Shown here: positions 1 through 37,245 of the stretch, in pieces
Position numbering within the stretch: position 1 is the stretch's first letter
How the letters are laid out: each line of letters starts with the position of its first letter
Origin: Psammoneis japonica
Lineage: Eukaryota
Direction: 5' to 3'
Assembly (NCBI GenBank): GCA_008632985.1
Contig: QPGO01000012.1
Location: 496,001-560,000, forward strand
DNA: 64,000 nucleotides
Position numbers and translations under genes: made by a program
Notes under the pieces: generated by a model
Seen by the model: only the letters and a program-made list of their open reading frames with translations
Databases searched by the model: none
Told to the model about the DNA's origin: nothing

Positions 1-3000
1 GGGTCTTCTGACGCCCAGACCGTCTGCCACGCCTTGTCCGAGCATGCGCTTGCCTCCACCCGCGCTTCCATCGAGTCCTCCACCTTGCTCACGTGCCTCA
101 CCACCGCACGTCTTGGTGATGGCACTTGGAAAGTTCCGATCCACGGGTTCATCCTTCATTGGCAAGATCAGTTGCGCAAGTGCAAGGCACTCATCCCGGC
201 CAGCGACCACTTCTCTGAAGGACAGAAGTGCGTCATGCTCGAGAATGCCGCACATCCTGTCGAGGAACTCCGCGCCGTCAAGAACCAAGCTGATCAGCAT
301 CACACGCAGAGTGGCAAGAGCCTCACATGCGATCAACATTGTGGCTTGCTCCTCTCCGCGGCGGCTCAATGCGACAGTGCGTTTCAACCCAAGACGACAC
401 CTTGAGCTCCCCGACGCACCATGTGCGCACATGACGTCTTCTCCGAGGAACCATCCGATGATGTGTTCTGTGACATCGACAGCGACATTGACGTCCTTCA
501 GGCCAACGCTGCCTGCACCCGTGGTCCCAGCCTCACCGGTGACCAATGGAAACGTCTCCCTCCCGACCACCAACAGATTTGGGATTCGTTGCCCCATTCC
601 TCCAAGGCGATCATCCTTGAGCATTCTCGTCCGCCTCCCCGCAACCCGCAAGCCAGCAACCACCATGAGTCCATTGCGGCCAACCTTCACGACCAACGAC
701 TTGGGAGTGACGGTGATGTCAACTTGTCCAACACGACTCCTGCTGACTCTGGTGACCCTGCTCCAAATGTGGGTGCCACTTCAGACAATCCCATTCTGGC
801 GCACCTCACCAAGTGCAAGCCACTGCCACCCGGTGATCTGCAACACCTGTTGTCTCCCAACCAAGCCCCCAACGCCAGTCGACCGGGCCCATCCGCCAAC
901 TCCCTCTACCTCGCCTGCTCCTGCAGATGACATGGAACTCAACGGCCGCACTTGCCGCCGCGTCAATGACCACAATGTCATTTGCTCTGCCTCCGCTCAT
1001 CGCTCCACATGCACTGGTGCTCTGGTCCATCGTGGAGCCAACGGCGGCATTGCTGGTGACGACGTTCGCGTCATTGCACGCACCTCTCGCCAAGTCGACG
1101 TTCAGGGCATTGACGACCATCAATTGGTGGACATCCCCATTGTCACTGCTGGTGCCGTCATTGAGACACAGTGTGGTCCCGTCATCGCCATCCTCCATCA
1201 GTGCACATGCACGGGAAAGGGCAAGACCATTCATTCCTGCGGCCAGCTCGAATGGTGCAAACATGATGTCAACGATCGCTCTGTCACGGTGCCCAACGGC
1301 TTGCAATGTGTCGCCACCCCTGATGGCCATGTCATCCCAATTGACATCAAGGGCGGCCTGCCTCATGTTGCCATGCGTCCCTGCACTGACGCCGAATGGG
1401 ACACCCTGCCCCATGTCATCCTCACCGGTGATGACACATGGGATCCTTCCGTCCTCGATCACTCCATCACTGATGACGACCAGTGGTGCGACGCGATCTC
1501 TGACCTGCAGGACGATCCCACTGCCAACCCATTTGACGAGTGCGGCAACTGCCGTCACCGTGTCGTTGTCAACAAGGCCATCATGTCCGCCTCCTTGTCT
1601 GCTGATCACGCGTCCATCCTCGATGACCACCTCATTCCGAATGACGACGTGTTCTGCGAGTGTCATCTACACGCGATTGACCCCAAGGACGACAACGTTC
1701 CGCCCCCGGAGCGCACTGTGCAGCCCAAGGACCCCCCCTGCGAGTCTCTTCGGCCTCACTTTGGTTTCCAACCTGCCGATGCGGTTCGTCGTACTTTCGA
1801 CTGCACCATGCAGTGCGCCCGCATGCCCGCCGGTGCACACCTTAAGAAGGCCCACAAATCGCCCAACCCCACCCTTAATGTGCACCGCCGCAACGAGCCC
1901 ATCACCACTGACACCGTTTGTGCCGACACCCCGGCCGTCGACTCTGGTTGCACCAGCGCCCAACTGTTTGTTGCCACCGAGTCTACCGTCACTGACGTCT
2001 GCGGCACCAAAACGGACAAAGAGTTTGTCAACACACTCGAGGATCAGATCCGTGAGCGTGGTGCTCCATCCAAACTCATCAGCGACCGTGCTCAAGTTGA
2101 GATCAGCAACAAGGTGCTCGGGATCCTGCGAGCCCTCTTTGTCTCCAGCTGGCAAAGTGAGCCTCACCAGCAACACCAAAACTTTGCCGAACGTCGACAC
2201 CAGACCGTGAAGCGCATGGCAAACACTGTCATGGATCGTTTCGGTTCGCCTGCCCACACATCGCTGCTGGTGCTCATGCACGTGTGCTTCATGCTCAACC
2301 ACACAGCATCCCCACGTCTCCACTGGCGCATGCCCCTCGAGACTCTCACTGGCTCCACCCCGGATGTCAGCCCATTGCTTTGCTTTCACTGGTGGGAACC
2401 CGTGCACTTCCACCTCGATGACTCCGATTGGCCGTCCGAATCCCGTGAGTTGCGTGGACGCTTTGTTGGCATTGCTGAGCACGTCGGCCACCAGATGACC
2501 TTCAAGATTCTCTCTGACGAGACTCAGAAGATCCTCTGCCGGTCCAACGTACGATCCGCTGCCACCGATCCTGCCGTTCGAAACCTGCGTCTTGATCCTC
2601 CTGATGGGGAGCCACCTGAACCCATCATCAAATCTTGCCATGACGACAACCCCGTCGATTCACCCGATGGGGAGATCAGGACACCCAAGATGCCAGTTTT
2701 CGATCCGCAAGACATCATCGGACGCACCTTCCTCATGCAGCCACAAGAGGACGGACAACGCCACAGAGCTCGCATCGTCAAGGCCTTCGAAGACCACGAA
2801 TGGAAAGTGAACGGCAACCCCGAGCTCACTAAGTTCGTCTGCTCTGTCAACAACGACGAATGCAAGGAAGTCCTGGCCCACAACGACATCATGAATCACA
2901 TTGAGCAAGAAGACAAAGACACTGCTGTTTGGAAATTTCGACGCATTGTGTCACACGAAGGACCTCTGAAGCCTCATGACCCAACCTGGAAAGGCTCAAG

Positions 3001-5240
3001 CTGCAACATTGTGCTTGAATGGGAAAGTGGGGAGATCACGTCCGAGCCTCTTGCCATCATCGCCAAGGACAACCCTGTCACCTGCACCATCCATGCACGA
3101 GAGAACGGACTTCTCGACACTGACAGCTGGAAGCGGTTCCGCACCATCGCGAGGCGCCAGAAGAAGCTGTTCCGCATGGCCAACCAAGCCAAGCTTCGCT
3201 CCTTCTGCACTGCACCTCGCTGCAAGTGCGGATGCGAAGTTCCCCGGAACTGCAAACACGCCATGTCACTGGACGAACGCAATGGCAACTGCAAATGGGG
3301 AGACGCAACTAATCTCGAGATGGGCCAACTCAATGAACACGAAGTCTTTCATGACTGCGGGCCCTCCGAGTCTTCCACTCCTCCTGCAGGACACAAGAAG
3401 ATCCAAGTGCACCTGGTGTGCGACGTGAAACACGACGGCTGCCACAAGGCACGACTCGCAGCCGATGGGCACCTCACGGACGCCCATCGACAGTGTCTGC
3501 TCCGGAGCAGTCTCCCTCCGTGGCCTTCGGCTGATGATTTTCCTGGCCGAACTCAACGAGTTGGAGACATGGGCCACTGACATTGGCAATGCCCACCTTG
3601 AAGCCACCACCAAGGAGAAGCTGTACATTGTGGCTGGACCCGAATTTGGCAAACTCGAAGGCCACATTCTTGTCATCCACAAGGCCCTGTGTGGACTGCG
3701 CAGCTCCGGCCTCCGCTGGCACGAGCGCTTCGCCGACTGCCTGCGAGCTGAAGGCTTCTTCCCCTGCCGCGCCGAACCCGACATTTGGATGCGCAGGAAC
3801 GGCGACCACTGTGAATGCATTGCCGTTTATGTGGATGACCTCGCCATTGCCATGAAGGACCCTCAATCTTTCGTCGACACTCTCACGGAAAAGCACAAGT
3901 TCAAGCTCAAGGGTGCGGGACCCATTGAGTTCCATCTGGGTTGCGACTTTTCCCGGGACCCCGACGGAACCTTGTGCCTGTCTCCGCGCAAGTACATTGA
4001 ACGCATGGTCGACAGCTGCACACGACCTTTTGGGGAGAAACCTGCCACCAACGCCCTGTCACCTCTGGAGAAGGGTGACCACCCCGAACTGGACACTTCC
4101 GAACTGCTGGGGCCCGATGGCATTCAACAGTTCCAGTCTCTTGTTGGTTCACTCCAATGGGCAGTGTCCCTTGGTCGAATTGACATTGCCACGGCCGTCA
4201 TGTCACTCTCTAGCTTCCAAGCTGCGCCCCGTCAAGGCCACTTGGATCGTGCCAAGCGCGTCTGTGGGTGCCTCTCCAAGATGCGACACGGTGCTCTCCG
4301 CGTTTGCACGGAAGAGCCCGACTGTTCAGATCTCCCTGCTCCGGCCTGTGAATGGATGCATTCCGTGTGCAGCGAAGCAGAAGAGATGATCCCGAAGGAT
4401 GCTCCACCGCCCCTTGGCAAGTTCGTCACTGCCACCCACTGTGTCAATGCAAACTTGTGCCATTGCATGCTCACCGGACGCTCTGTCATGGGAATGCTCC
4501 ACTTCCTCAACAAATTCCCGGCTGATTGGTTCTCTGAGAAGCAAGCCACCATGGAGACTGCGACCCACGGGTCTGAATTTGTTGCCGCAAGGACTTGTGT
4601 CGAGCAGATTGTCGACCTGCGCATCACCCTGCGCTGCCTCGGCGTCCCGATCCGTGACATCAGTCGCATGTTCGGTGACAACAAGTCGGTTGTAGACAGT
4701 GCCACCATCCCGCACTCCAAGTTACACAAGCAAACACACCGCACTGTCATTCCACCGTGTGTGTGAGGCAATTGCCTCTGGTTGCCTTGAGCTCCACTTC
4801 ATCGAAGGCTCCCACAACCCTGCTGACATTCTCAGCAAGCATTGGGGTTGCTCCCAAGTCTGGGACCTTCTCCGCCCCCTCATGTTCTGGAACTTCATTC
4901 CATCTGAAGTCGAATCTGTTTCTGTGACTCCTCAAGCAAACTGGGGAGTGATAGGATTTGAACAGGATTTGGGTGCGTGCGACATGTCGCGCGCTGTTTG
5001 CTTTGCCGCGCACAGTTTTGTGTGCTTTAGTTCCGCACATTCGCGCGCGATGTAGTTTGCTTTCGAGCCACAAGGCTCACAAGAATGACAACAGTGGCCC
5101 GATTGTACCAACTTGCACGTCTTTTGGCTCCTGTGACGGTCTCTGAGCGGAGACTCATCTGCCATTTAGACAGCAGTGAGGAGTTTTTGTTTGAATTCTT
5201 GCCATTTGCCTTCAATTTCTGTCATGTGATTTTGGTTTCA
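1..5240 (+). mobile_element. Ty1/copia (diatom CoDi-like) LTR retrotransposon, cut at 5' by the window edge, decayed
   Basis: gag remnant (34-405, TGA); protease-like LVHRGANGG; integrase (LISDRAQVE, SEPHQQHQNFAERR); RT (DIGNAHL, KALCGLRSSG, YVDDL) in ORF 3465-4766; RNase H (NPADILSKHWG). Frameshifts near 3480 and 4735. PPT ggggag before TG at 4949. Confidence 0.93.
4949..5240 (+). repeat. Putative 3' LTR of the copia element
   Basis: Starts TG right after the purine tract (ctggggag|TGatagg); plausible ...tttCA end at 5240. No partner LTR in the window, so the end is uncertain. Confidence 0.55.
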
Positions 5241-6302
5241 AGTGATGCACAATGCTTTCGACCAGACAATTGCATCATGGATTTTGCGTCGAACGCATCT
5301 TGACCCAACGGCCAAGCCCAAACGGGGTCATTGGAAGCCATGAGAGCTTCTCGAAATGCATGACAATCAACCCAGCTGCCCCCACGGTGGCCAACAAATC
5401 ATCGTCGGATTGCAATGGAAAAGTGTCGCAATGATCCTTGTTCCACCGGTGGCAGATGTCATTTCTGAATTCAACGACCTTCTGTCTTCCGCCCGCCAGA
5501 ATCAAACCCAGTGCAAAATTTGATGGTGTTTGCACCACGCATGGCAACAGGCTCTCACGCACGGCAATTTTGCACCGGAGCTTGCACATCCTGATGGAGT
5601 TGTAAATCCTTGAGTGGGGCCCAGCAAGGACTGAGGCGAGCGTGCGGCCACACGAAGTTGTCAGTCCCGTCTGCTTGTGACTCAGTGCATTTCTGCGGTG
5701 AAAATTGCACAGGAATCCGACGATGACAAAAACGGTCAGATGACTTCCGCCAACTGCAATGTGAAATGCACCCAGTGTGCATTCTTTGTTTGTTTGTGCT
5801 TGAGTTGACTCTTTCAGGCGTCAGATGCAGTTGCTTTGACGAGTTGGAATTTCTCCGAACGAATGACGAATCGCACGGAGCACCACAGCTTTGTACGTGA
5901 AGGCAGTGCTCAGCGTTGTTTTGGCAAGTTCAGCAAAGTGACTGCATGCAACGCCCAAAACAGTCAACTCAACTGTCAACGAACAAAGAATGTACATTGG
6001 GTGCAGCTCATGTTGCAGTTGGTGGAAGTCATCTGACCGTTTTTGTCATCGTCGGATTCCCACGCAATTTTCACCGCAGAAATGTGCTGAGTCACGAGTG
6101 GGTGGGACTGACAACTTCGTGTAGCCGCGCGCTCGCCTCAGTCCTTGCTGCATGTGCAGCACCATGCAGCACTGCATGAGCGTAGTTTCTCCACGACCCG
6201 CCCAGCACAAAGCTCAACATGGAAACAGAGAAACACGAAACACAGTGCAGTGTGCCCATTCCCCCCTTCCATCCCACAGAAATGCGGCTCGATTTTGGCA
6301 AC

Positions 6303-8876
6303 ATGTTTGTCTGGCACAAGCTTGACGACTTATCGTCGAGCAAAGTGAAAGTGAAAGATGGCGCTGATGTGGATGATCTGAAGGTCGTGACACATGAGAA
6401 ATCGCCAGAGTTGAAGGACTTTTCCGCTGCTCGCCTCAAGGTCTTCGCTGCGGGTGCCGATCCGAAACAGGGCGAACATCTCGACCCTGGCGACATCGTG
6501 TCATCTAATGCAACAAGCAGGAAACATCTGATTGTGGTCTCTCCGAAGCAAGATGGTGAGTTGAGATGTTGTTTTCATGGTTTGTGCTGGTCGAACTGGA
6601 GTTTGCTGAAAATTTGCATCATTGTGACTGCAACATCCTACTCTGAGCTCAAAGTTCACAGCCAACAATGTTTGTCGGTTTTCATGTTGCCTGCAAAATT
6701 CAGGTGCATGCGCAGCACGGAAAAAGAGACCAGGCTACGAGCAGGATCAAAGCATTGATGCACTGGCACAACGTTTGGAAGACCAGGCTTCACTGAAGCC
6801 TTCAGATTCAGAAGAGTCGGCTGCGCCTCTTCCGTTCACCAATCGGGACACAGAGATCAAGCAACTTGCCAACATCTTGCTTTCAAATTCTGCAAAACGG
6901 AAGAAGCGGCCAAAGACATCTGGTGCAATGTCGCAGAGTCGACTGGTTCTTGCAACATCAGCACAGATGCTCGGCTCCGGCAAATCAACCTTTGAGGAAA
7001 ACTTCTTGGATCGATTGAATGCTCACTGTGTCATGCAGAGAAGGCTTTGTGAGCGTCATCTGGAAGACAACGTGGGGTGGCTTCTTAGGCTCGTTTATGT
7101 TGGTGTGGATTCAAGGGCGTTGGACTTTGCCAAGCCATTCATCGTGTCTGTTCGCGATGCTCTGCTCACGGCGTTGTGGGGGGAACTATCCAAGGAACAA
7201 CAGGATGCCGCCAAGGGAATGTTTGCACAACTCGGATCGCCTCTTTCATTAAATTGTGCGTCTGTTGTACGAAAATTTGAAGAAATCACGAGATGCCACT
7301 TCTTTTTGCACCTGGACAAGGTCAGTGCTTTGGGGGCTTTCATGACGAAAGAGCAAACAGAAGTTGCACTTCTCTGCCAGATGTGGGGGGAAATCAGCGG
7401 CATTCACAACTCCACAAACTCTGAAGTTTTTTGTTCTGGTCGCTCTCCGTCCCTTTTCCTTCTTGGCAAAGGGGATGTTGGGTCAAAAGAGGGTTTGCGC
7501 TCTCCGGAGGATGTCATGTGCATTCTGTTGGACCCCTTGAAGAAGGAAAACGTGAAAGAGATCTTTGAAGTTTTCTTGGATGATGTCGATGATGAATTCA
7601 TCAGTCTGTTGCATCACGTGACAAGTGGCATTCCATGGTTCGTTTCGCACGCCGTCAACTTCTTCACAGATCGCATTGGGGTCACTGGTTTTGCCCCGAT
7701 CAACTGCAAAGAAAGGAGGACAAAGTTCTTACATGATTTGGAGCCTTTCAGCTGATGCCTCGACATGCACGCCTCAGCCGAGATGAATCCGCTTGAGGAG
7801 TTGCAGGGAGCTCGAAAGAATTTCTGTGCGGAGTTGATTCAAATTGCCGCCTTGCGCCTTCCTCTGCGAATGGACAAAACGATCGACAGAGCATGCTGGG
7901 GTCTTCCAGGCGAAGTGATGACTCTGAAAGTGTGCAGCACATTTCCGCTGCATCTGCAACGCTGGGACGGAAGCCATCATTGTTTCGTTGTCCCTCCTGC
8001 AATCTTGAACAATGTTGCCAGAGCCAGCACAGAGCCTCGGCTTCCATTTTGGAGCTCTCTGTGTAACGCATGCCCGGTTCAGGCACAGGCGCAGAATTTG
8101 GGGGACTTGCTCAAGACTGTGATCTGGCACATTCTTCGCTTGAGAGTCAGCGAGGAGCTTTTTGGCGGTCCTCGACCTCTTGGCCAGTGCCTGCCCTTCT
8201 TGGGAGGGTCAGCATCAAGAAAGACACCTTCTCATGTTCTGACTTCAAATCTTTTCCCAAAATTTCTACCGCTCCAGCATCTGGCGGCAATGATGCCCAG
8301 TTGCGTAGATTCTTTGATGACCCATCTGCCACTGGCTTCAGTGATGTTCACCCAGAGGACCTTGGAAGAGTGGTCGGCTTGCTTCAGGAGGGACATTTCT
8401 GTGTGCCTCGGCCAAAATCTTCTTCTGCCGACCTGCTTTTCAAAACTGGCAATCGTGTCATTGTCGAGGTGCAGTTCAAGAACGGAAAGCAGGGAGTGAA
8501 TTCCGCCATGATGGCCAAAGAGCTGAGGAAGTCGTGTTGCATGTCGATGCGCAAACAGGCACCTGCAGTGTTTGTGATGATCGCGCTCACAATTTCAGAG
8601 GAAAACCTGCCATTGGGCAGAGATGTCATCGACAGTGAAGGCAAGACGATTGCCAGGCGTTGCGGTGAAGGATCAACTTTTGGCAAATTTCTTGTTCCCT
8701 CCAGCTTGGAAGTGATTGTTGTGCTGGAGCCAGGCCTGGAGTCATTGCTGACTACAGAAAATGTCAAAATCCTCCGCAAGGGCGAGCTTGATTTGTGTGA
8801 CATGACTCTGGCTACGCGGTCTTCAAAGTGCTGGCTTTTTTGGAGCAAGGACGTACTGAGTCTGGGGGGCAAATGA
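6303..8876 (+). pseudogene. Crinkler (CRN)-like gene: ubiquitin-like N-terminal domain + P-loop NTPase + PD-(D/E)xK nuclease-like C-terminus, disrupted
   Basis: Header MFVWHKL...DVDDLK...LKVF...LDPGD...LIVVSP; GT donor at about 6556; Walker A QMLGSGKSTF and Walker B-like FFLHLDKV; C-terminal SADLLF...VEVQFKNG. Premature TGA at 7753-7755 and a frameshift near 8200. Confidence 0.65.
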
Positions 8877-9292
8877 AGGGACAGCATTGATTGGCCTGAC
8901 AAGGGCACAGAACAACAGCCAAGCACCCTGCCTGTTGACATTTGTTTTGCCACTGTGTCGCATTGCTTCGACCGACGCTCTTTCTTGTGTTTTTCTGAGC
9001 CAGCCTTGCTCACCGTCAAAGCACGTTGTGATGCTCCCAACGACAGATCAGCTGCACTGTGTTAGAACTTTGCATCATAAACGGAAACTTTCCCAAATGA
9101 AATGATTTCGAACAATGTTTTTCTGTCACATTTGCTTGCGGACGAAGTCAGACACAGTCGAACCTGTCTTCGTTGTTTCAGCATGTGTCCGGTCACGTGG
9201 GTGGCTCCGAGTTTGTGAAAAAAAGAAGAGGAAAAGGAGGAGGACGAGAGAACATTCGTGTGGCAGATGGCAGGGCCTCTCTCTGCTCTGCT

Positions 9293-9673
9293 CCAGTTGG
9301 TCATCCGTACAAATGCCACAATGCCATGTGTGGCATTTCTTTCTGCGGCGAAACTGGCACTGATTCTATGCAATGCCATGTAAAATGCCACATTTTGCGC
9401 ATGAAAAAAGCGTGCCGGCAATTGATTCGTGGCCCCCGACTGCGACAAACTCATTTCTTATGTTGTGCTGTACAGAAGCCTTGGAATGCCACTTCCAATC
9501 GATTTTCCCTCATGTGTTTCATGCGCCCCTGTGCCCAGCGGTGTTTGGCGCTTTGCTGTCAACAGAAAAACAATCAGGGAGCATTGGAAAAACAGTGGTG
9601 GCGTTTGGGATCAAAATGCCATGTTCATGCCACATTTGGGGCAAATGTGGCATTTGTGCGGATGACCAACTAG
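9293..9673. mobile_element. MITE / non-autonomous DNA transposon with about 28-bp TIRs
   Basis: ccagttggtcatccgtacaaatgccaca at 9293 is inverted to tgtggcatttgtgcggatgaccaactag ending at 9673 (2 mismatches). Internal aatgcca repeats. No clear TSD. Confidence 0.75.
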
Positions 9674-10449
9674 CTGGACTTAGTCTTGCAATGCATTCAA
9701 CGTGCACGCACGATGCCCAGACGATTGGCGCCGCAGCTCTCGCTCCAGTGGCGCGCTCGCTCTGCTCCACCGCGACCAGCAGAGCAAACACTCTAGCTAA
9801 AGAACAGTGACACGCCATGGGCCATCTAAGTGCAATGTCTACAGTGCTGCTTCATTGCTCACGGAAAATGCAGAAAACGCACACCCCCACAACTGACTGA
9901 CTCCACAGTCGACACGCAACAGCATGCCCGCCAAATGCTTCATCACAAATCTTCAACAGGTCCCACACTGTTCTGTCCATTTCCTCTCTACACTGAAAGT
10001 TTCAGAAACCAAATTTCCCAAAATCAACAAATGATGTCAAAAGACTTTTAAGTCACCCGGCCAAATTTCATGGCCCCAAGCATCACCAGCGGTTTGTTGT
10101 TCCTCCCTTTGCTTCTCCATTTTGCCAAGAGCAAAGCCCAGGCTGGAAGGCACACTGCCAAGTTCTCCCAAAACAATGTGGACAGTGTCACATGATGGAG
10201 ACAGTGAAGATGACACCATTGCAGAGCAGGAAGAAAGGGCCGCCACAGACCATCAGACCAGACACCTGCGCACGTCAACCAGACTCACAAAAAGAGGCTC
10301 GTGAGGCACGCGAATTTCATCAAAACGGGTCTAAATGCCAGCCAATCGCAGCACACTTGCTGGTTTGTCTTCTTTGGACAATGATGAGACTCTCTGACAA
10401 ACACCAACATCAGGAGCATCCCCGAGGCTCCGTCGCATCATTTTGTTCC

Positions 10450-13400
10450 GGCGCGCACTTTTCAGAAATTGTGACGCCCGAAAAATGGTGTGACGTGATG
10501 GTGGGTGCGAAGCTGGCTGAGGGTCTGGGACAACAGGTGGAGGAGGGGTCACCTGTTGCATGCCCAGGTCAAACAACAGTTGAGGACCAGGAGGACGCAC
10601 TGCCTGTGTGAAGTGGGCCTCGTCGTGCGTGGCATGAGGGGCAGATTTCTCACAGCCGGTGGTGGTGTCCACGCAGCGAATGTTGTTGTCAGCAGCCGAG
10701 TGTCTGATGAAAACACCATTGAACGTGTGCTGGTCTAGTTTCGCGGGGGCCTTGCCGGGGCGTAGAACACAGACTCGTGAGCCAAATGCACGAAGATGGG
10801 ACAGGTCCGGTTTCTTGCCTGTCCAAGCTTGGCAGGGAGCAGTGTCGATGGCAGAGTGCCACAACCGGTTCTTGAGATGCACCGCGTGCACCAAAGCATC
10901 GGACCAACAAGCAGCAGGAAGACCTGAGGAATGTAACAGGGATCGAACCACAACTCCAAATGTTCTGTTGAGGATTTCCACACGGCTGTTCTGCCAGGGA
11001 GCATCAGCACCAGTGGGTTCCATCACATGGCCGTGTTTCATGCAAATCTTGCAAAAATCCTTGGACTTGGCTAGTTCGCCGCCTTGGTCAGTGCACACTG
11101 TACGAAGGCCATCCTTGCGTTTGTGTTGCGCCAGGAATGCATCCACCATTTCTGTGGGCGGATTCTTGCTGGCGGTGAGGAAGACCCAGGTGCAGCGGGT
11201 GCGAGCATCCACAATCAACAAATGTGAATTGCAACCATCATGGGACTGCACTGTGCATTCCACACTGTCTTTCTCATGACATTTCTTGGTCCGCGGTTGC
11301 ATGTCAGGTCCCGAAGCACGCATGAACCCAAAGTCCACATGGAAGCACTCAGCAGGTGCTGGATCGGCATCATCGACAGGCGAGCCCATGGGAGCCCGTT
11401 TGGGGTTAGCATCGCTGCATGCCTGACAGGAGCAAAAGGGGTGTGACACAGCCTGAAGATTTGAGGGTGGACCAAATGCGTGTCGTCGAAGGTGGGTGAG
11501 CTGGTGCATGCCGGGGTGACCAAGTCGATGGTGCCACAATTCGCTGGTGGCAACATGTTGCAAGGACTGCAAAGCAGGGTCAAGCTCAACGTCGGGGGAG
11601 GGAGGAGCATCAGACGGGGCCGGTTCAGGCGATCCATCCGTGGCAGCATGTGAGTCGTCAGGAGTTGGGTCTGGAACGTCAAAGGAGCATCCGCGGTCCT
11701 GGGACATGGGTGGATGAACTGCAAGAGTGTGAAGGGCGCCCTTGAGCTTGGTGGTGTCCACAGACAAAGGGACATCGGGACGAAGACGTGGTGTAAACCA
11801 CAGCCCATTCACACGGACCATGGGAAACAATCGTTGGAGAGAATGGTTGTGATTGGCAACCGTGAGCATGCCGTGACCGGTTTCCTGGCAGTGCAAAGCA
11901 TGACATTGATTGCACCTCTCCTTGGATGAACGAACCAGATGATCCAGGGACATCACAGTTTCACCAAGTCTGGGACAATGAAACATCGGAGTGGAGCAGG
12001 CTTGGTTGCGCAGATCACGGACTGTGCACATGCCAATGCCGTGGGCCAAGACTGACTTGTCGGAGGCTGACACAGTGTTCACAGCCTTGGGGCGGGAGAA
12101 GAACTGATGGCAGTCTGAAAGGAGGTGGCGGTGGGATGTGGCACTGCAGTTGGCGCCCACATCAGCCTGACCGCAAACCTGCACTGGGGTGTCTGGAGTG
12201 AGATTGCCAATGCTCGCATGGTGGAACATGGGCAGAAGAGCCGTGTCATGTTCCAATGCCAAAGCCGCAGACAGGGTTGTCGGTGGTGGAGATGGAGGTT
12301 CCACAGGGTCCTCAGCAAGCTCTTCGACAGCCGTGGCCCATGATTCGTCTGAGATGGACAAGGAGTCATCATCAGGGATGGAGCATGACGAAGCAGAGTC
12401 CAAGTCGGTGGAGACAAGATCGGGAGGCTGGCCCAAGTGAGTCCAGTCGGGAAGTTCAGCAGGCGGAGGGATTGCAGACGCGAAAGATCGACATGTCAAA
12501 GGAGGGGTCGGTGGGTTCAGCGGAAGGCAGAGGCATGGAAGTGCCCCAATCATCTGCCCCGCTGTCATTGTGAAGCCATTCACTGTGAGTGGGAGATGGA
12601 CACAGCTGGCTCACTGAAAATCCGGGGGTGCGTTAGACTCAAACAGCATGTCGGATGCGGCCTCGTCCATCATGAAATCAAGAATCTCGTCCGACGCATC
12701 GGATGAGAAGGCTCGCACCGCAGGACGCGGTGTGTCCTTTCGGCGTTGGTTGTGCGAGCGCCACTTGGATGTGATTGAAGATGCCATGAGCAGGGCATGG
12801 CGCGCGAGCTGTGAACAATCACAGTGGCTGTGCCCGCGTGCACCACAAGCATTGCAGACAAGGTCCTTGCAATGTTGAAAGATGTGTGTCTGGCGGTCCG
12901 GAGAAGACGAGGGATGCGGGCGGTGGAAGCGGCCTCGGAATGCGTGGAGAGACCCGGCTGGATCCAAAGAGGAGGTAAGTTTTGGATCAATCTGAGTGAT
13001 CAATGAGACAAGATGGCAGGTCATGTGGCAGTGGGGAGGATTCTCCAAGTTCACGGAGGCGGTGTTTGAGGAGGGGGACCGAATCGCACAGACCGTCCGG
13101 AATTGAGTCTAGCAACTTGATGGATTTGTTCCTGTCTGAGTGCGCCGGAGGTGCAGTTGGGTCCGCCGTTGCAGCCACCACATCTGCCGCTGCAAAGAAG
13201 GTGGTAAAATTGGCCACAAGTTTGCACAGGTCACCTTTCCATGCAGGAGGTTCAGCAACTTTGCCGGCAAGGGCAGGAAGACCAATGGTGGTGAGATGAG
13301 ACAGGACAGCACAGCCATCCACAGAAGCTGCATGGATCTTCTTCCATCCATCACACAGGCAATGATCCGGAAGGACTTCATCTTGGATCAGCTTGGTGTA

Positions 13401-15486
13401 AATTTCAATGGCGTGCTTCTGGTGTTGGACAGTGCTGACGAGCATGGGGTTGCAGAAATCCGATTGATCCCGTGCAAGGGCATCTGGGTCCCACATGGGG
13501 ATGCCCGTCTGGGTGCACCGAGCATGGAAGGCCTTCAGGAACGTGGCGACATTGGATGGTTCCACAGTGCGGAGACAGGGGCCCGGGGTCTCGCGAAACG
13601 TCTTGCTGCTGCAGCACCATTCAGAGCTGGAGGAGCCAGAGGATTTTCCAGACGAGAGGAGTGAAGCCGTCGATGACCCAGAAGAGGAGGAGGCGGGAGT
13701 GGCACCAGGAAGTTGGTCGATGATGTTGTCCAAGACTGTGGTGAGTTTCACCGCTAGGGTGGGAGGAAGGCTGTCAGGATCGGGAGCACCGGTTGCATCA
13801 GACGGGTCTGGAGACGACATTGTGTGGCCCTTGGCGGAGGATGGGGTGACGGGTGGCGGTGTGGTCGCTTAAAAATTCTGGAGATCCTTCCGAATGCCCA
13901 AGACTTCACGATGAGCAGCCTCAGACACTTTGGCAGTGGTCTGAACTCGTTCCTCCTGTGATTGGATAGAGTTATTTTGGGCAATTAGCTGGGCGTTGAT
14001 GCCATCAAATTCCTTTCGAAGGGTGTCTGCAAGGTCATCCTGTGCAACATGTTGAGCCTCCAGGAGTTGAGTCGCAGAACCAGTGTCAGAGGAGGGGGAA
14101 GGGAGCAGGTTCTCACATTCATCGAGCAAGCCCGTCATGGTCGCCGCCACTTCAAGGCTGTTTTTAATGACAGTTTCGGCTGCAGCTTCAGTGGCATCCA
14201 AGCGAGCTAGGATCAGGTCAAACTCTTCTGCATGTTTGGTGACATCACCCTGTGTCCGGTTTTGAAAATTGGCACGTGCAGAACCGGCGAGTTCTCCCAG
14301 GGTGTGTGTGGCATCAGAGACTGCCGTTTCCAACACCTCAATCTGGGAAGCAGTGACAGCGGCAATGCATTGTTCTTCATCCTGGGATGTCCGTTTTGGG
14401 CGCTGCAACGCGGCAGCCTCAGAAGCATCAATCTCGTTCTTGATTTCAGCAATTTGTGGTGCAAGATTTTCATCCAGGCATTGAACAAATTGATTGTCTC
14501 GGGAGGCTTCAGCGGAATTGGCGGCATCGCCAGCCATTGCTAAAGCCTCCTCTTTGGTGGCTTGCATCTGCTGTTCCATGATTGGCGCAACACATCAATG
14601 GCACTGGTGGTCGCAACACCCGCCACATCCGCGCGGGTCTGTTCAGTCATGGCATGAAGGGACTGCATCTCATCACGAAGAGAGCAGATTTCGGCAGTGG
14701 CTGCAGTGTGCGCAGTTTGGGTGTCATGCAGTTGCACCGCAGCACTCTCCAGTTGGATCCGACAGTCCCGCAAAAGTTCCTCATTGGGGACCGGAGGAGA
14801 ATGAGGCCAATTCGGAGCCAAAGGAGGAGGCAAACGAGGTGGAGGCGATGGTGCCGGTGCGTCATGTGGCGGGGTGTGGATCGCAGGAGGAGCCATTTGT
14901 TGCATGGGTGCAGGCGGGGAAGCGACCACCATTGCATCGACTGGAGCATCAGTCGACGGATGAGGTCGCAGAGTGCCCCGAACTGCCGCTGCAACAGAAG
15001 CTCCCATTGATGGTGCACCTGCAGGAGTGGATGAAGTTTCAGGAGATGCTGCATTGGGAGAGACAGCCGCTTGAAGGTTGGACATCCGTTCCCGCCAAGA
15101 CGAGGCCGTCTTAGAGCGGGTGCTTTCTGCAGGCGCCATGGTGTTGGAGATGCGGAATTGGGGCTGCGCAGCATGGAGGGCAATGGGTGTCGGGATGTGC
15201 ACGGGAGAAAACACGTGTGCAGAGCCGGTGCCGAAAGCTGTGGCAGCAGCAGCGGACGCAAACAGCAATGGTGTAAGAATGAAACGCTTGCGGCAGAGAC
15301 GTTGCTGTCACAGTGTGTCGGCAAAAATCGCCTGCAAAGCGGTCTTTGGCAGTGTTGATGACAATGGAGAGGAGTGCACATGTCAAGTCGCAAGTTGGTA
15401 GAGGGGCCTCGTTTGCGCAAAGCGCAAATGCTGCTCACAACCTGAGATGGATCCCAACCTGAGTGGGAATGACACGCAGCCACTGA

Positions 15487-15490
<4 letters not shown>
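10450..15490 (-). mobile_element. Second Ty1/copia-type element (gag, protease, integrase), truncated before RT
   Basis: ORF 10331-12583 has ADVGAN (protease), LWHHRLGHP (GAG-pre-integrase) and integrase core FHVDFGFM...TDQGGEL...QNSRVE. Zn knuckle CNACGARGHSHCDC near 12830. Broken gag ORFs 12611-15268. Candidate short LTR at about 15366-15490. Confidence 0.85.

Positions 15491-15540
<50 letters not shown>
15488..15540 (+). repeat. (CA)n microsatellite
   Basis: Perfect CA run read directly. Confidence 0.98.
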
Positions 15541-15541
<1 letters not shown>

Positions 15542-18500
15542 CCCCAATTTTGTGTGTTGCAAATGCCTTTGCCCAGCAACGCCGATGCCGGCCAACCCAC
15601 AGTCCCAGTGCGCTGCACTCATCAGTGCAGCAGAAAGATGCCAGGGATCAGCCAGAGTCAGTGCATGCGGGAAAGCTCGCATTCCAGTCTGGCAAGCAGA
15701 CTCTTTTTTTGTTGTCCGTTCATTCTCAGTGGCTTGTTGTTGTTTCAGTGCAGCATGAGGAGCGGAGTCAGCTTTTCTTGCCTGCAGTCTTGAAAAGGCC
15801 TCTTTTTTTATGAGCTTCTCAAGGCCAACAATGCGGCTCACCACCTGCTTGTTGTGAGCTGCTCTGCTGGCTGCGCCACTCAGTCCACCAACCAACCATT
15901 TCAGGAACGGCATCACTGGATTTGGGTGCAACACATGGTGTGGCAAGTGCTGCACACCAGCGTGTCTGTCACAACCTTTTTGCTGCCACTGCAGTTGGCT
16001 GACCATCTTGTGATGCTCGCATCCATTCTCACCAACCTGTTGTTGCATTTCTGTGTCAGACACGTGTTTGATTGATGGGGAAGCAAACAGGATCTGTGAT
16101 GTTCCTTGGCATTTAGGAGAAATGTCACTTGATTTGGCTGCAATGTGTTGCACAATGTGTGTGAGGGTGAGCGCCACTTTCTGAGCCTGTCTGTCGCTGC
16201 CGTTTTTGCCACTGATGTTGTTTGCTGTGGCACCCATCTGGCGACGCTCTCATCCAGGCTTGTGAGCTTGTTGACAGATGTGCAGAGAGTGAGCCAGGTC
16301 AGTGGCATGTCCCGAGTGGCCACTGTCACCATGTTTTTTTGTCTTCATGACTTTGGCACATCAATTGCTTGTGGTGTGTCTCTCCACAACAAGCCCCATC
16401 ATTCTCAATTTTCAATCATTGCTGACTTGCACATTTCTCCCACTGTTTGTCATGTCAGTGAGTGCTGTTGGATGTGAGAATCACAGTGCTGCATGCCATG
16501 GCATGTGCATTTTCTGGCTCACCTGTCTTGTGTGGCTTTGCAGTTCACGGAGTCTCCCGTCGGCATTGAAGCACTCGCATTTCTCTCTTCCCACCCTGGG
16601 ATGCCGGCCTTTGCAAACAATGGCCTTTTCCCTTGGAGTTCAATGCAGTGCATGCAATGGTGCCCACTTTGTTTTGCAATGTTGCTGCTGTGCTGACCTC
16701 TGCTTCTTTGGTTTGCTTCCACTGCAGAGCAGGCATTGAGCATCTCCGGGCACTGCATGGGACACATTGGCACCCCCCTGACAATCACTCTCTCCTCAGT
16801 GTGACGAGCTTGCTGCAACGGGATGTCAAGAGTGTGGGGTGCCAATGGTGTGGGCCAATGCCTGTTTGGGGATGGTTGAGATGGGCTTTCATTTGCAGCT
16901 GCACCTGCTGGTGGTGCCTCATTGTTGATGTCAAGGATTTCCATGTGGACATCGCTGGAGCTGGTTGCATTTTGTTGCAACAATTTGGTTTTTGTCATGG
17001 CCTGCATGGACAATGCTTTGCTGTGTTGTTGGCATTGTTGCTGTTGTGCCTGATGGTTCTGACAATGCTGACAAGCTCATCGCCAACAACAAGAGCATGT
17101 CTGTCACTCCACTTCCCATGAGGGTGACAGTCAGAACAACAACAAGAGATGAAACATGCTTCACAATCATGAGCCGCACAAAGATTGCAACATCATTGCA
17201 AGGAACAAACGAGGTTGTCAAGCACCTGGCACATGATTTGCTTGCTCCAGTCAGTGCTGGATTTGAGTTGGCTGTAAAATCAGCAAAGGAACAGCCAGAT
17301 GACAACTGCACATTTCTGATTTCTTGAAAAGAACACCATCGCGCATTTGTGCTCTTAATGAAACAGTCTCACAATTTTGACCAACACACAAAATCTCTGC
17401 AACCAAGCACTTGGACCCTGCTTTGCACAGGGCAGCCTCTTCTCCTGCCCACATCTTGCATTTGCGCACAACTGCCACTGCCAGCAGCAAATGGCACACC
17501 GCCACCACAGCACAATGTTGCAATCTGATCACTGTTGCATCCTCTGCACATCAACAACTTTTAGATGCCAGCACCTCCTCAACATGAAGGGACACTGTCA
17601 AACATGTGCCGTTGTCTCTCTTCCCGCCACCAGCTGGCAGCTGCCTGTCTCCCACCAACCACCCTGGCTTGTCCACTGCTGCCATGGCAGCAAGAAGAAT
17701 GACAAAAGATTGACCCTTCTCAAATCCCTTGATCTGCCTCATTTGCATGCCCTGGATCACCTGTTCCCATTTGCAATCCAAAGTGGATGCTTTGGGAGGA
17801 ACAAGCTGTGCACACCTCCTCCATGGCCTGCTGATTTTTGGGGATGGTGGCCAGACTTTAAAGCAAGCAAGCCATCACAGAAACTCATGACAAGATTGCA
17901 TGTCTCTGTTGAAATGACAAGAATCATCTCTGCAGCATTGGAACTTGCACAATTGGCCATTGCTGCAGCACATCAATGTCACAATGCAAGCACGTTGACC
18001 CCGGTTTGTCTGCATTGAAATGAAAAGAATTTGCATTTTGAGCAGCACTTGCAGCACAAGTGCACAGGCACACGCATGTGTGTTGCTCAATTGATGCTTG
18101 GCTCCTTGGTTGTATGATGCTGGACACTGGCAATGAGCAAAACCATCAAATCCTTGTACAAAATCTTCCAGAAACAACAGAGACAACCGGCAGAGCCAGG
18201 TTTCTTGTGGCAAAGCTCACTTGCTGAGCTGGGATTTTCCTTCTTGCTTGCACTCTTTGAGAAGCATTTGGCTGAAGTGACAGGCAAGCAAAACCCTTTG
18301 ACCTTTGACACTGTGGTGTGGTGTGATGCCAATGATGCTCTCTTGCCTGACTTTGTGTCTTCTTTGAAAATGCCCATTTGACATGTCTTTTGCACTGCCC
18401 TTGTGCCCTTGCAGCAGACACAACGTCATTGGGACCAAAGAATGGTGATTCCTCCTCCATGGTGAATTTGCAAGCAAGTTTCTTTTTGAACAAGAGCTGA

Positions 18501-18949
18501 CAGTGTTGTGTGTTGTGCCAAGCCTCCGTTTGTCATTCTCTTTTCATGCTCATGACAGCAGCAGTGGCAAGAGCAGCAGCAATGAGGTGAGCATGGCAGT
18601 CAGCCTGGCCATTCACCCATCACACCATTTTGTTTCTTGGACCACTTTCCATCCTTTGTGTCTTTCCTCCTCTGACACAAACTCTTGTGAGTGTCACCAT
18701 TCTCCAGAAATGTGAGCTGCCACACTTGATGCAAGTTTGGACTCATGCATCAAAAAATTAAATCTCATCACTCATTTCATCTTCTTTCCAACATGACACC
18801 CAGCAATGCTCTTTGACTTCAGTTTGCAGCCCTTGGCTTTGGCGAAGCAACCAAAGAAGATGGCAAGGCTTCAAAGCTGCTCATGTGTGGTGCAAAATGT
18901 TCTGCGGCAGAGATGTCTCATTGTTGAGGAACAATCTCACACACCAATG

Positions 18950-21060
18950 TGTCATTTTTTTAGCATGAGCAGATGGGAAAATGGCACCAGTTGTGCCAAC
19001 GGTGTGTGCAGTGCCTGAGCAGCTGGAGCCATCGAAGCACTCCATCTCCACCTGGGTGCTCCAATCCATGTTCCACCAGCAGCTCAATCTGCTCCAGGAA
19101 TGAGCAGTGTTCAAGCAACAGTTGCAGATGGTCAGTTGCATTTGGAACATGAAGAGATGTCCTTCTGAGACAGTGAGCTGGAAAGGCACCGCTCAACTTG
19201 TTGTTCACCAACACAAGCTTTTCCAGCTTGACCAGATTCTCCATGTCAGTGTCCAATCCTCCCTGCAGCATGTCACCCAACAGATTGATGCAGGTCAGTT
19301 CTGTCAAAGAGCAGATCTGATTGGGAATCAAACCTTTGAGCTTGTTGTTGCAGAGACCCAACTGGTGCAACTTTGATGGGTTTCCAATCATTCCAGGAAT
19401 CATCCCTTGAGGTGGGGGGTGGTTCTTGAGAATGATGTTCTCCAGTTCGGGCAGATGACCAATTTCACATGGAACAGTTCCTTCCCCAGAGTTTTTGTCT
19501 GAAACATCAAGTGAAACATTAAGGAGTGGTTAGATGGTGGCAATGTTCAAAGAAAGAAGCACACAACGTTGCAAAAAACTTGCCAAAAACAATGGCACTA
19601 ACTTGACCAAGTCTCGTTAGAGATGTGACCAAGCCAAAAGGCTCCAGCAGACTCATCAGTGCTCTGCAGCCAATCCTTGTTGAGTCAAGCCACATCCCCA
19701 TGGGTGGAATGCCAAAGCACTGCCAAGATGACACTGAGTGACTCAATTGGGAGAATCCAGAAAGCCAACAGCTGCAAAGGATCACTGTTAGAAATCCACT
19801 GCCTTGCCAAGTTCTGCGGCGAGTTCAACATTTCCAGAAGGTTTGACTCTGACATGCCAGCAAAAAGTGTGTTGAGCTCTTTCTCTTGATTGGTCAGAGG
19901 AGGATCCACCATTTTCTCCCAACAAAGTGACCGCAATGGAAATGACAACGGCAACCACCACAAGCAAAAAGACTCCAACAAAACACAAGCGCTGCTTGCG
20001 TTTCTTGACAGGGTCCAAGGGAATGACAGCAGCACCACCTGGGCCCAGGGGAGAGCTTTGCAAAGTGCCACACGAGGTGCAAGTGGGTGGCTTGGGTCAA
20101 AAACACTTATCTGCTGAAATCACGCTCTTGTCAAACACTCCGTCATCAATGGCACAAGCCGATTTGTCTTCTGCAGAAACAACACGGTTCTCAGCCCCAG
20201 CCAAAACAGTTGGATCATCTTTGGTGTTGTGGGGATTCACCAAGCTGTCCAGTCGTCCCTGTGAGACTTGTGGGTTCTGACATTGGCGGCGCAGTTGGAG
20301 AATGCTGCACTTTTAGTCAAGTGAAAGAATCGTTCCTTTCGCGGATCAGTGAGCAGAGGATGAGATGGAAATGCTTGCGGGGGAGAGCTTGATGGACTGA
20401 ACCATCATCTTGGATTGATGCAACAACTGATGCAGTTGCTTGAGATTCAGAGTTGAGTGCATCTGATTTCTTCCTCTTCATCATCAAGCGCAAGGTGTCA
20501 ATGTTCACAACCGACATTTCCTCTTCTGCGTGTTCTTTCACTTGTCATCCTCCGTTTGACTTTCTTCGTCCGCTGCGACGGACTTTTCTGCTGGCGGCTC
20601 TTCCTCTTTGCCTTCCACTTCTGCAGACTTTTCTTCTGTTTGATCTTCTCTAGGCTGCTGCAGCCAGCCTCTTCTGCTTGGTGCTCTGGCTCTTCCTCTG
20701 CGGCAGACCAAGACTTTCCTTCTGCTTGGTCCATCTGTTCTTCTTCTTGCACCACAACAGATTTCTCTTTTGCTTGTTCCTCCACCTCATTTGCATCTGC
20801 TGCAGACTCGTCAGCCACATGTTCCTTCAGCTCTTCCTCGTCTGCTGCAGCAGCCTTCTCGTCTGCTTGCTCTTGAGGTCATTCAGGCTTTTTCTGGCTC
20901 CGCAAGGTGGGCTCTTCGTCTCGGGGTGGTTCGGCAGCCACAGGAGGTGCACTTTTAACGGGCAGATCTCTCACGCTATCGGTGTTCATTGAAACGGACT
21001 CATCCCGCAAAGAGAGATGGGACAACCGAGATGTCGTCTGCAGTCGAGCATCGCCATGGT
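18950..21060 (-). pseudogene. Decayed transmembrane leucine-rich-repeat receptor-like gene (diatom type)
   Basis: Fragments in order: charged coiled region; TM segment KKRKQRLCFVGVFLLVVVAVVISIAVTLLG; SPQNLARQWISNSDPL; LRRs (LGLCNNKLKGLIP, LVLVNNKLSGAFP). Several stops and frameshifts. Confidence 0.75.
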
Positions 21061-22936: not shown

Positions 22937-24829
22937 TTCAAGAACTAGAAATTTTGCAGTCGGGTGGGGGCTTGCAGCAACGGAAAATTTCATTTTGCAT
23001 GTGTTAGTTTTAGATCCAAAATTAGTTATTAATTCAGCTACCGCACGCTAGAGTGCATCAAAGGCATCCCACTCTTCAGTTGTACCACATTCATTGCTTT
23101 GGCGAGTCTGCAATTGGAAAGGGTCAGCCCGGCAAGAACGATCTGAGCAGAAGCGGATCCACGTCATTGCCACCCATCTGCGGCTGTCCTTGGTCACAAG
23201 AACGGAACATTGCATAGACTCTTTCTAACTGTGTGGGACCCAGCTTTGCCTCCCCCAGAGATGGAGGATGCTGCTGCTCTTACATGTCGTGCTGTCATGT
23301 CTTCAAGAACATTGGAGAACAGAACGATGGCACTGCTCCCCTCGAAAGTGTCCTCACTCGAGGTGATCAGAGCTGGTGCTGAAAAGGCTCACCTGAGCAG
23401 CCGCATTGTTCTCATGCTCTTGGCACCAAGCATGACACAAGTGAAACTGGCTGCATTTCTGCTGTCTGGTTGCTGTGATCACTTGCATGACATGTGTGAA
23501 ACTGGCTGCATTTCTGCCATCTGGTTCCTGCAATTCTGTCTGGTTTGTTGTTGCAACTCAACCATCCAGCAAGAACAAAATGCAACAGAAGCTAAAAGAT
23601 CCAGCTCCACATTCAAAAGAAGATCATTGAGTGAGCTCCCAATGCAACAGAAACTGCTGGACAGGCTTGATTGTCCAAATGTGCAGAAGAACTCCAATGC
23701 ATCCTTTCTGTGCAACTTTTGTGAGTGGATGTGAACAAGCCAAACTTTTTTACTTTTTGCTCCATGAAGGCATGGATGAATTTGTCAAGTCCCACCCCCA
23801 AGCAAAGCAACATTTTCCAGCAACAATGTTTCTTTGCAGCGGCTGTCATGCTCACACACCCCGAGCAAGCTGGGGACCACATCCAATTTTGTTTGCATGC
23901 TGCAGTCACCCCACACCTCCTGTTGCAGGTCACACAGGCCAGCAGCACTGGCACAAGTGGCACAAGGTCAGAGTGTCATTTTGTTGTGCTTTGCCCATGA
24001 AACTGCCCTTGCTGTCTCCATGGTCCACCACCATTGTTGGGGGAGAGTGTGCTGAAGCCAACAGTCATGCAAAGAGAACCACAGCTTTGGGCTCAAGATG
24101 CTGGCTCAATGATGGCATTGCCACTGTGGACGTGGTTGTCAGCAACAGCTCACTTGGACATCATGGCACACACTGCAGTGACAGAGGCAGCCTGTGTCAT
24201 GGCAAGTCTTGTCCATTGCATGTGTTTGTTTTTTGTCCATGACAGACAGCCAGTTGCACAGAACATGATTTTGTCAACTGTGGTGACAGATTACAATTTT
24301 TACATGGTGGGATTTGACCTCCCCAAATGGGAAAAAATCTTTCACCATGAGAAATCTGCCTTCCTTTGTCACCATGAGAATGCCCAAAATTTGTCTCCAC
24401 AAAACCTGAAAAATGAAAGCATCTTTGTTTTCCAAGTCCTCTCTGCTTTTGACTTTAATTTTGAACAACACAATGCATTGGTGTGCACTTGGCTGGTGCC
24501 AACAATTGCTCAATCACTGCTGTGCCAGTTGCTGCTGGCTGGGGTTGACAACACAACTAAAAACAGCACTGGCAGTGACAACATGGTCAAAGACAATGTG
24601 AGTGATGATGACAAAAGGTGCTGGAGCACCCAGTTCCTTGCAAGTTAAAGTTGGCATCAATGATGGCACACACAGAGAAATCTGAGAGCAGCAAGCAGTC
24701 TCTTTTGGATGTTTTGAGCATCAGTGTTTGCAGTGTTTTGAGCATCAGCATTTGCAGTCTAGAAATGCTTGTTGGAGCTGCACTCTTGGGTTGTGGTGCA
24801 AGCAACATTTTTTCTTGTTTTGGGAACTG

Positions 24830-25360
24830 GCGCCAGCATGTGAACAATCTCACAAAGGCTTGTGCCTTGCTCTGGGAGAGGTGCTCCAAGAAGGCCACAA
24901 AGAATGAGATCCAGTCAAGGTCTGACTTTGAAAGCAAGATTGAGAATGAGCCCACATTTCTTCAATCAAGGCCATCAAAGAGCACATGCTGAATCATCAA
25001 GCACACAGGGTGCAAGATCATGGCATTCATTGCTGATTCATTGAGAGCCATGTTTGGCGCCAAGCAGAAGGAGAAGAAAAGTTTCCAAGACCAAACCAAG
25101 TGACTCTGCTGGCTTTTCTGACTAAAGTGGTCAAAGCAATGTGTGATTGTGACAGCTCCAACCCAGACACTGTCAAGAAGTGCCAACACAAGGCATTCAG
25201 TTAATCACCAGGTTGCTTGCACTTGGAGAATGTGGATGAGCAAAAACATGACTCCATTTTCTCAGCACTGAGCACCCAGAAATCACTGGGAATCAATCAA
25301 TGTCTCTAGTTTGTCACAGAAGCCAGCAGTGTGTGCTGAGCAGCCACAGGTTTGACAACA
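24830..25360 (+). mobile_element. Old gag relic related to the copia family at 37.2-42.9 kb
   Basis: NNLTKACALLWERCSK...IQSRSDFESKIENEP matches NNLVKAHALLWERCSK...IQARTEFQTKIENDP at about 37965-38070. Confidence 0.75.
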
Positions 25361-25559
25361 TCTGTCAGCCCAGGGTGCAATCCTGGAAACTGGGTGGCAT
25401 GTGCAAATGGCAAAATGAAACAAGATCTCATGCAGAGAAGGAGCAGCTCAAGGACCTCATGGCAGAGAACAAGCGGCTCACAGACCTTGACAACAAGAAC
25501 AAGAGGGACAGACACCAGTTGCTCAAGGCAGTGGCTCCTTCGTCTGCCACAAAGACAAC

Positions 25560-37232: not shown

Positions 37233-37245
37233 AGTCGGCAGTGTC

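Follow-up and report, generated by a model that had tools for sequence, protein, structure and literature searches.

Near-saturating TpA transitions and loss of tyrosine codons in a Ty1/copia retrotransposon and other putatively silent DNA of the diatom Psammoneis japonica

A TA-stripped, tyrosine-poor retrotransposon

The DNA analysed here, referred to as the window, is a stretch of 64,000 nucleotides from Psammoneis japonica (GenBank assembly GCA_008632985.1, contig QPGO01000012.1, positions 496,001 to 560,000 of the forward strand), and it opens with the 3' part of a Ty1/copia long terminal repeat (LTR) retrotransposon (Table 1). The assignment follows from a match to the Pfam reverse transcriptase (RT) family RVT_2 (E 5e-20). 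The element is bounded by a 5-bp target duplication, TGTGA, that lies directly after the 3' LTR (5225-5229) and also precedes the 5' LTR; an exact 5-bp duplication accompanies 10 of 15 LTR pairs, the remaining pairs being one base off or without one. The domain order was taken from RVT_2-bearing homologues (39-64% identity), and one homologue is named from Fistulifera solaris, also a diatom; a Pfam scan of the open reading frame (ORF) preceding the RT found no family, integrase included, and a search with the RT among phages gave no match. The element has almost no TA dinucleotides. Between 930 and 4900, 14 TA were observed and 181 expected (observed-to-expected ratio, o/e, 0.08), with TG (o/e 1.67) and CA (1.34) in excess and CG at 0.84 (269 observed, 319 expected), and over the whole element the window copy reads TG or CA at 211 of 248 TA-type sites. 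A first-pass annotation, made from the letters of the window, had described this copia as still CpG-rich with few TA survivors, and these counts bear it out.

The same annotation had reported that ORFs 44-3580 (1178 aa) and 10331-12583 (750 aa) contain no tyrosine, and the count is indeed zero in both; seven host-like window ORFs contain 0.6-4.1% Tyr, and the median of 120 copia homologues is 4.0%. In the RT frame (3429-4766) three Tyr are left, one of them in what we take to be the YVDD motif, where Tyr survives in the window copy; among the 29 copies with TA, TG or CA at this site, 23 retain it. Across 35 alignment columns with Tyr in at least 60% of the homologues, the residues of the window copy are Cys (19), His (9), Phe (3), Trp (1) and Tyr (3). 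Columns conserved for Phe, Trp, Leu, His or Cys are retained, and Ile has become Val at 10 of 49. Because TAC and TAT are the preferred target, Tyr becomes Cys when the sense strand is changed and His when the antisense strand is. Tyrosine is thus removed as had been proposed, with Cys or His at 28 of the 35 columns; the ATA, GTA, CTA and TTA codons, named as a further target, are a minor one (17 vs 49 Tyr-type sites among 103 coding TA-type sites). In matching frames, 30 copies of the element retain between 3 and 35 Tyr each. They contain 25 stops, 17 of which are CGA>TGA and none of which stems from the TA process, in line with the earlier claim; that no new stops arise follows from the genetic code and is not a design feature. 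The loss of Tyr would probably inactivate the copia proteins.

The description of the element as largely open-framed was accurate as to the long ORFs, and less so as to their integrity. The window copy differs by one base from other copies near 898, 3483 and 4733, where the frame breaks; these differences may be assembly errors, since public contigs likewise depart from the assembly by one-base indels in single-copy DNA (at 5307, 8209, 9161 and 10020), and frame breaks in the assembly should be read with care. The codon at 403-405 is TGA in the window copy and CGA in 11 of 14 copies. The 1178-aa ORF is a chimera of frames: its first 285 codons (bases 44-898) lie outside the gag frame, 27 of 28 homologue matches being in frame +1, and it stays open because TAA and TAG are scarce (about 1 per kb each vs 7-8 in host DNA). 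The copia copy adjoins an inverted duplication (L031:4-546 and 851-1391, about 90% identical) that lies immediately before the window and comprises a portion of the 5' LTR and leader.

Depletion extends well beyond this element, with TA o/e below 0.25 in 73 of the 128 window bins of 500 bp and with sharp-edged blocks. The nearest relative of the older second copia (82% identical) is TA-stripped as well. A third copia at 35179-43668 has duplicated segments that are 90-97% identical and intermediate TA (0.1-0.3), peaking near the host genes. At 16000-20000, 23200-29000 and 59000-60000, TA and CG are both nearly lost (CG o/e down to 0.04, TG/CA up to 1.9), and such blocks are likely the end state of both processes.

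Table 1. Features of the window (positions within the 64,000 nucleotides).
Feature	Position	Strand	Remarks
Ty1/copia LTR retrotransposon, 3' part	1..5224	+	whole element ~7.1 kb; 5' LTR ~1.6-1.9 kb before window start
gag region	1..898	+	frame +1; CpG-type stop at 403-405
pol region upstream of RT	899..3481	+	frame +2; zero Tyr; conserved Tyr columns are Cys/His
RT (Pfam RVT_2, frame +3 to ~4733) and C-terminal part (frame +1)	3483..4914	+	3 Tyr remain
3' LTR	4949..5224	+	276 bp, TG...CA; 88.8% identity with own 5' LTR
Single-copy TA-stripped pseudogene	6200..8900	+	TA o/e 0.10; best paralogues 65-77% identical, partial
Older second copia	10331..12610	-	gag_pre-integrs and SH3_retrovirus matches; zero Tyr; TA o/e 0.07
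TA-poor domain holding the copia	1..20900		TA o/e 0.02-0.22 per kb
Second TA-poor domain	23200..30100		CG nearly absent over most, o/e 0.04-0.07
Third TA-poor domain, with another copia	34000..44000		TA o/e 0.08-0.29
Control, host genes	44500..58500		ordinary TA (o/e 0.4-0.8) and CG
Short TA- and CG-poor block amid host genes	58800..60600		low TA and CG o/e

Rate, site preference and reach of the TA loss

A genome search gave 511 candidates, of which 36 were scored, and the 30 best copia loci, at 93-95% identity, were analysed; over these, 106 sites were classed as TA-type, 317 as CG and 90 as ambiguous. At the TA-type sites, the cells read TG (1446), CA (975), TA (734) or something else (13), so that 2421 of the 2434 changed cells are TG or CA. 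The mean loss per copy was 0.77 at TA, 0.14 at CG and 0.010 in the other columns (0.65% transitions, 0.36% transversions), with a private background change of 0.24% per copy; 85% of CG sites still read CG. The resulting TA:CG hazard ratio is 9.5 pooled and 10.1 as the mean of copies (3.7-16.6 by copy), and it falls to 4.5 in the worst case, when the 62 ambiguous sites with any CG are moved to the CG class; the proposal that TA loss outruns methyl-CpG decay is upheld under either count. A stricter set of 76 sites with TA in at least two copies gives 68% loss. TA loss is probably underestimated, since sites that have gone the identical way in all copies stay invisible. We estimate that TA changes at ~100-500 times the background transition rate per base, and that CpG decay, itself fast here, proceeds at ~12-50 times that rate. 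Set against CG loss and background divergence copy by copy, as the first-pass annotation had suggested, TA loss is strong at ~1% background and heterogeneous among copies (0.35-0.90, p=1e-50); it follows CG loss (rho 0.73) and shows no correlation with background divergence (Spearman -0.04, p=0.83; private changes only, 0.21, p=0.27), which rules out a loss that scales with divergence.

Both LTRs of a retrotransposon are identical on insertion. Across 15 LTR pairs we counted 123 TA-class, 55 CG-class and 22 other differing units, each LTR having 17 TA-type and 22 CG sites; as the pairs differ at TA sites, the change acts on integrated DNA. TG and CA outcomes are intermixed along each copy, both strands being affected, and their concordance between copies (0.659) is close to the 0.669 expected from site frequencies. 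A permutation test revealed no strand runs (0.559 vs 0.558, p=0.46), strand-processive bursts were not seen, and there is no per-copy strand bias (p=0.42). The process thus works on integrated DNA, affects both strands, proceeds site by site and gives almost exclusively transitions. It prefers a pyrimidine 3' of the A (hazard 1.06-1.09 for C/T vs 0.39-0.42 for A/G, ~2.6-fold, p=3.5e-14), is weakly reduced by a T three bases before the A, and leaves YTAR over-represented among the survivors (94 of 194 TA, 48%, vs 151 of 868 TA, 17%, in host DNA). A>G following A, C or G is at background level (0.008-0.012), and neither CG density nor local GC affects the hazard of a TA site. The TA at 3310, 3624, 3828, 3993, 4693 and 4723, several of them TAY and one belonging to the YVDD Tyr codon, are retained in 22-30 of the 30 copies.

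The reach of the process is visible at its edges. Of 29 long flanks, 8 extend into TA-normal DNA; across their first 400 bp, TA o/e rises through 0.12, 0.19, 0.37 and 0.48, with CG o/e at 0.61, 0.53, 0.65 and 0.91. This is a halo in which TA recovers within ~200-400 bp and CG recovers alongside, and the leakage into flanks amounts to 200-300 bp. The single copy whose 3' LTR is spared has no such halo. In pairs with a spared LTR the members retain 15 vs 5, 13 vs 6 and 4 vs 13 TA; in four copies (L039, L044, L047, L033) the 5' LTR and leader retain most TA and the body is stripped, and in a further one (L048) the 3' LTR behaves likewise. These patches span several hundred bases and are perhaps open or promoter chromatin; a general sparing of 5' LTRs was not significant over 14 copies (Wilcoxon p=0.14). 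The pseudogene at 6200-8900 has single-copy depth, its top relative is at most 77% identical, and positions that are Tyr in its paralogues read Cys or His. Of the six paralogues with the longest matches, five (L072-L076) have TA at 0.33-0.45 and CG near 1, and the sixth (L078) is stripped. That a single-copy gene is stripped and most of its paralogues are not favours a chromatin domain over homology pairing, although a twin since lost is possible; taken together with the spread into flanks along with CG loss, this argues that the process follows putatively silent chromatin and not homology. The pseudogene (6186-8876) also has a P-loop-like motif and a nuclease-like C-terminus, in which Pfam finds nothing and which to us recall Crinkler-type proteins.

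A putative adenine editor and its rivals

We consider it probable, at roughly 60%, that a host mutator converts TpA to TpG, on either of the two strands, in chromatin domains that are silenced and probably CG-methylated. The clean A:T>G:C transitions at T-A-Y are best explained by adenine deamination: a mutator targeted to putatively silent domains would deaminate the adenine of TpA to hypoxanthine, which would be fixed as G upon replication and be read as TpG or CpA. The deaminase would be of the TadA/ADAT type or another zinc enzyme recruited to silent chromatin, and weak repair may contribute. A search for the alkyladenine glycosylase AAG/MPG (PF02245) that detected 4 of 14 controls gave no genome match; this result and the presence of endonuclease V (EndoV) may both affect the repair of hypoxanthine. 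The exchange of Tyr for Cys or His would cripple the retrotransposon proteins without new stops, a role that would amount to genome defence, and we infer that such a process could be active now. The fuller version of this reading is tentative, with chances slightly short of even: a dedicated natural DNA adenine deaminase, steered to methylated or silent chromatin, would remove TAY fast enough to disable a retrotransposon burst through Tyr>Cys/His before ~0.5% neutral divergence, by a chemistry opposite to that of repeat-induced point mutation (RIP), and would be shared with or convergent on the Bigelowiella system discussed below.

Several genes are candidates for parts of such a pathway. TadA prefers T before A, and engineered TadA base editors exist. 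The genome encodes an ADAT2-like gene with HAE, PC and 'CRNDRFGG' motifs, in which, by our own motif reading, Asn would stand at the place of TadA D108, and a second TadA-like gene. A further TadA-like deaminase (L054:319-1791, minus strand; G000:C79 near 88 kb) is in frame with DIOX_N and 2OG-FeII_Oxy domains and probably serves nucleobase metabolism. An intact single-copy gene of 320 aa (L096:1105-2067, minus strand; G000:C2 near 247.4 kb) contains HAE and SRAPCxxC; its protein model, with a predicted local distance difference test (pLDDT) score of 73.5 (only 39 when modelled without alignment), matches APOBEC3 structures (E 2e-9), and a search of 1.8 billion representatives gave only 10 relatives at E<=1e-10. 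This APOBEC-fold gene may be relevant to the fast CpG decay or to the TA process. C5 DNA-methyltransferases gave 27 genome matches, including at least five long genes. Some copies (L061-L063, L067, L070; G000:C301, C297, C28) lie in TA-poor DNA (o/e 0.03-0.11), are nearly Tyr-free and are possibly carried by mobile elements. In the available part of one study, an ADAT2 is described as able to deaminate DNA adenine (PMC10354150).

A number of observations weigh against an adenine deaminase of silent chromatin. Sequence does not distinguish A>G from T>C on the opposite strand; none of the candidate deaminases is tied to the TA pattern; ADAT2 is a housekeeping tRNA enzyme present also in organisms without that pattern; the fold class of the APOBEC-like protein is that of a cytidine deaminase; and EndoV, as noted, is present. 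TA hazard does not depend on the distance to CG (rho 0.05), and several TAY sites are strongly protected beyond the weak effect of T at -3. The copies are, moreover, the best 30 of those scored. Some changes may be inherited, as concordance is slightly higher between the closest copies (rho -0.24, the pairs not being independent). Against present-day activity, the 13 differences listed where contigs depart from the assembly in low-copy DNA comprise 12 CG/TG or CG/CA, one TG/CA and no TA, the zero being as expected if the substrate there is spent. Finally, the amphioxus ADAT2 prefers TCG and GAA, not TAY, according to the accessible text (PMC10354150).

Among the alternatives, an artefact of base calling or assembly, or selection or composition bias against TA, could draw on the one-base indels relative to public contigs and on the mildly low TA everywhere (host o/e 0.4-0.8); we give it hardly any weight. 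Between 6119 and 9229, public contigs from run X1, which may be the same sample as the assembly, depart from the assembly by 2 letters and 2 gaps over 3111 bp, a stretch with 20 TA where 193 are expected, and the 8 contig pieces listed over TA-poor low-copy DNA have 0-3 differences each; on this agreement we reject a base-calling or assembly artefact. Independent records show the pattern too: in one of the 120 copia homologues (P0079), 17 of the 22 columns with conserved Tyr read Cys or His, and among 80 metagenomic copia loci, whose median TA o/e is 0.73, one (L170) is TA-stripped (TA 0.16, Tyr 0.5%) and another (L148) intermediate (0.30), which suggests further carriers. That an ADAR- or APOBEC-like enzyme edited RNA or cDNA of the element in the course of retrotransposition is the least credible account of all. 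U/T 5' of the edited A is indeed an ADAR preference, as stated in the available part of a preprint (10.64898/2026.01.13.699255), but both strands are changed in each copy (TG 1446, CA 975), the two LTRs of a copy differ, and flanks and a non-mobile gene are affected, which refutes such editing as the main source. A RIP-like process, in which homology triggers the pairing and mutation of duplicated DNA with reversed chemistry, would account for the targeting of mostly repeats and for the leakage into flanks, and diatoms encode DNMT4 enzymes related to RID, according to the accessible part of PMC9998398. We nonetheless hold it very improbable, as single-copy DNA at 6200-8900 with no relative above 77% is stripped, unlike most of its paralogues (a lost twin apart), one LTR of a pair may be spared, and strand runs are absent.

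The alternative that we take most seriously, though we find it unlikely, is that methylation of the TpA adenine (to N6-methyladenine or another adduct) precedes its deamination or miscopying, or that the T of TpA is miscopied in heterochromatin by an error-prone polymerase or in a repair patch. Unclustered, site-by-site events suit a standing mark or a slow leak better than a processive enzyme, and the hazard is weakly correlated between sites less than 15 bp apart (rho 0.24). An error-prone polymerase would, however, give a less clean spectrum than one with 13 changes other than TG/CA in 2434, and A>G outside TpA is no higher than background; a genome search for MT-A70 gave no match, but its controls were blank, so that it is uninformative. 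Improbable as well, and placed after it, is a lesion on thymine, in which a modified T in TpA (5-formyluracil made by a TET/JBP-type enzyme, or O4-methylthymine made by a stray methyltransferase) pairs with G. Both modified bases give T>C, so a symmetric, transition-only spectrum is equally expected, and the long C5-methyltransferase genes and a reach matching that of CG loss fit this account. A genome search for Tet_JBP gave no match, with all controls blank too and hence no information. More telling are related copia that have lost CG and kept TA (L105, CG 0.10 and TA 0.58; L140, L141, L131 and L106 similar), which show that TA loss is not a general by-product of CG methylation. As TA loss is rare among related copia and CG loss occurs without it, the process appears lineage-restricted and separate from CpG decay.

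Significance and comparison with known systems

If the proposed deamination is correct, the enzyme would be a natural DNA adenine editor, possibly one for double-stranded chromatin, and the speed relative to CpG decay, the sequence preference, the boundaries and the protein effect described here add to the one case on record a fingerprint for an enzyme search. In practical terms, the TA process fills repeats with long false ORFs and hides domains from Pfam, and insertion ages based on LTRs are inflated many-fold, 89% of the LTR differences here being TA- or CG-class. Our literature search, outside whose coverage most subscription papers lie, found no report of TpA hypermutation in diatoms, and found nothing on A-to-G hypermutation in Phytophthora.

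To our knowledge, the known repeat-mutating systems deaminate cytosine. RIP in ascomycete fungi changes C>T, creates TpA and stop codons, lowers GC, needs homology and leaves strand-coordinated runs within a copy. Like RIP, the process described here consists of transitions at a specific dinucleotide, brings integrated repeats to saturation and spreads into their flanks; unlike RIP, it produces an A:T to G:C excess, removes TpA, makes no stops, raises GC, affects single-copy DNA and leaves no strand runs. It is not RIP. Deamination of 5-methylcytosine in CpG, in a setting where diatom transposons undergo DNMT5-dependent CG methylation (available part of PMC9998398), yields the same products (TG and CA) in the same domains and runs in parallel here, but has another substrate, is ~10 times slower here and is seen without TA loss in related copia of other samples. 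TadA/ADAT2 acting on DNA has A>G in common with the present process, but a natural, genome-wide, chromatin-targeted role is not established in the accessible text, and the amphioxus enzyme favours hairpin loops and other contexts (PMC10354150).

The closest match, and the sole published instance of TpA-specific A>G, is a 2026 preprint on the rhizarian alga Bigelowiella natans, to which our data add a second supergroup, at saturation. According to the available part of that preprint, mutation-accumulation lines carried 231 mutations in two integrated viral regions (nucleocytoplasmic large DNA virus and virophage DNA), 230 of them AT>GC and all of these at TpA; the rate was ~6e-7 per site per generation, ~1000 times background, and ADAT2 was proposed and is unproven (Mettrop et al., 10.64898/2026.01.13.699255). 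The accessible portion of its main text contains none of the words diatom, CpG, tyrosine, LTR and trinucleotide. Both cases show TpA>TpG and TpA>CpA almost exclusively (2421 of 2434 changes here), on both strands of genomic DNA, in foreign or putatively silent regions that include single-copy DNA, and the TpA-poor clusters of B. natans are enriched in transposon domains. Having these sequence features, the present case probably works like the B. natans system. The two differ in extent, since TpA falls only to 0.45 in the B. natans regions and approaches saturation (0.02-0.1) in young LTR retrotransposons of the diatom, and in how the rate is known, ~1000 times the rest of the genome there and a relative estimate only here (~100-500 times background per base). 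The preference for TAY, the spread into flanks, the spared LTRs, the coupling to CG loss and the purge of tyrosine go beyond what the available text reports for B. natans.

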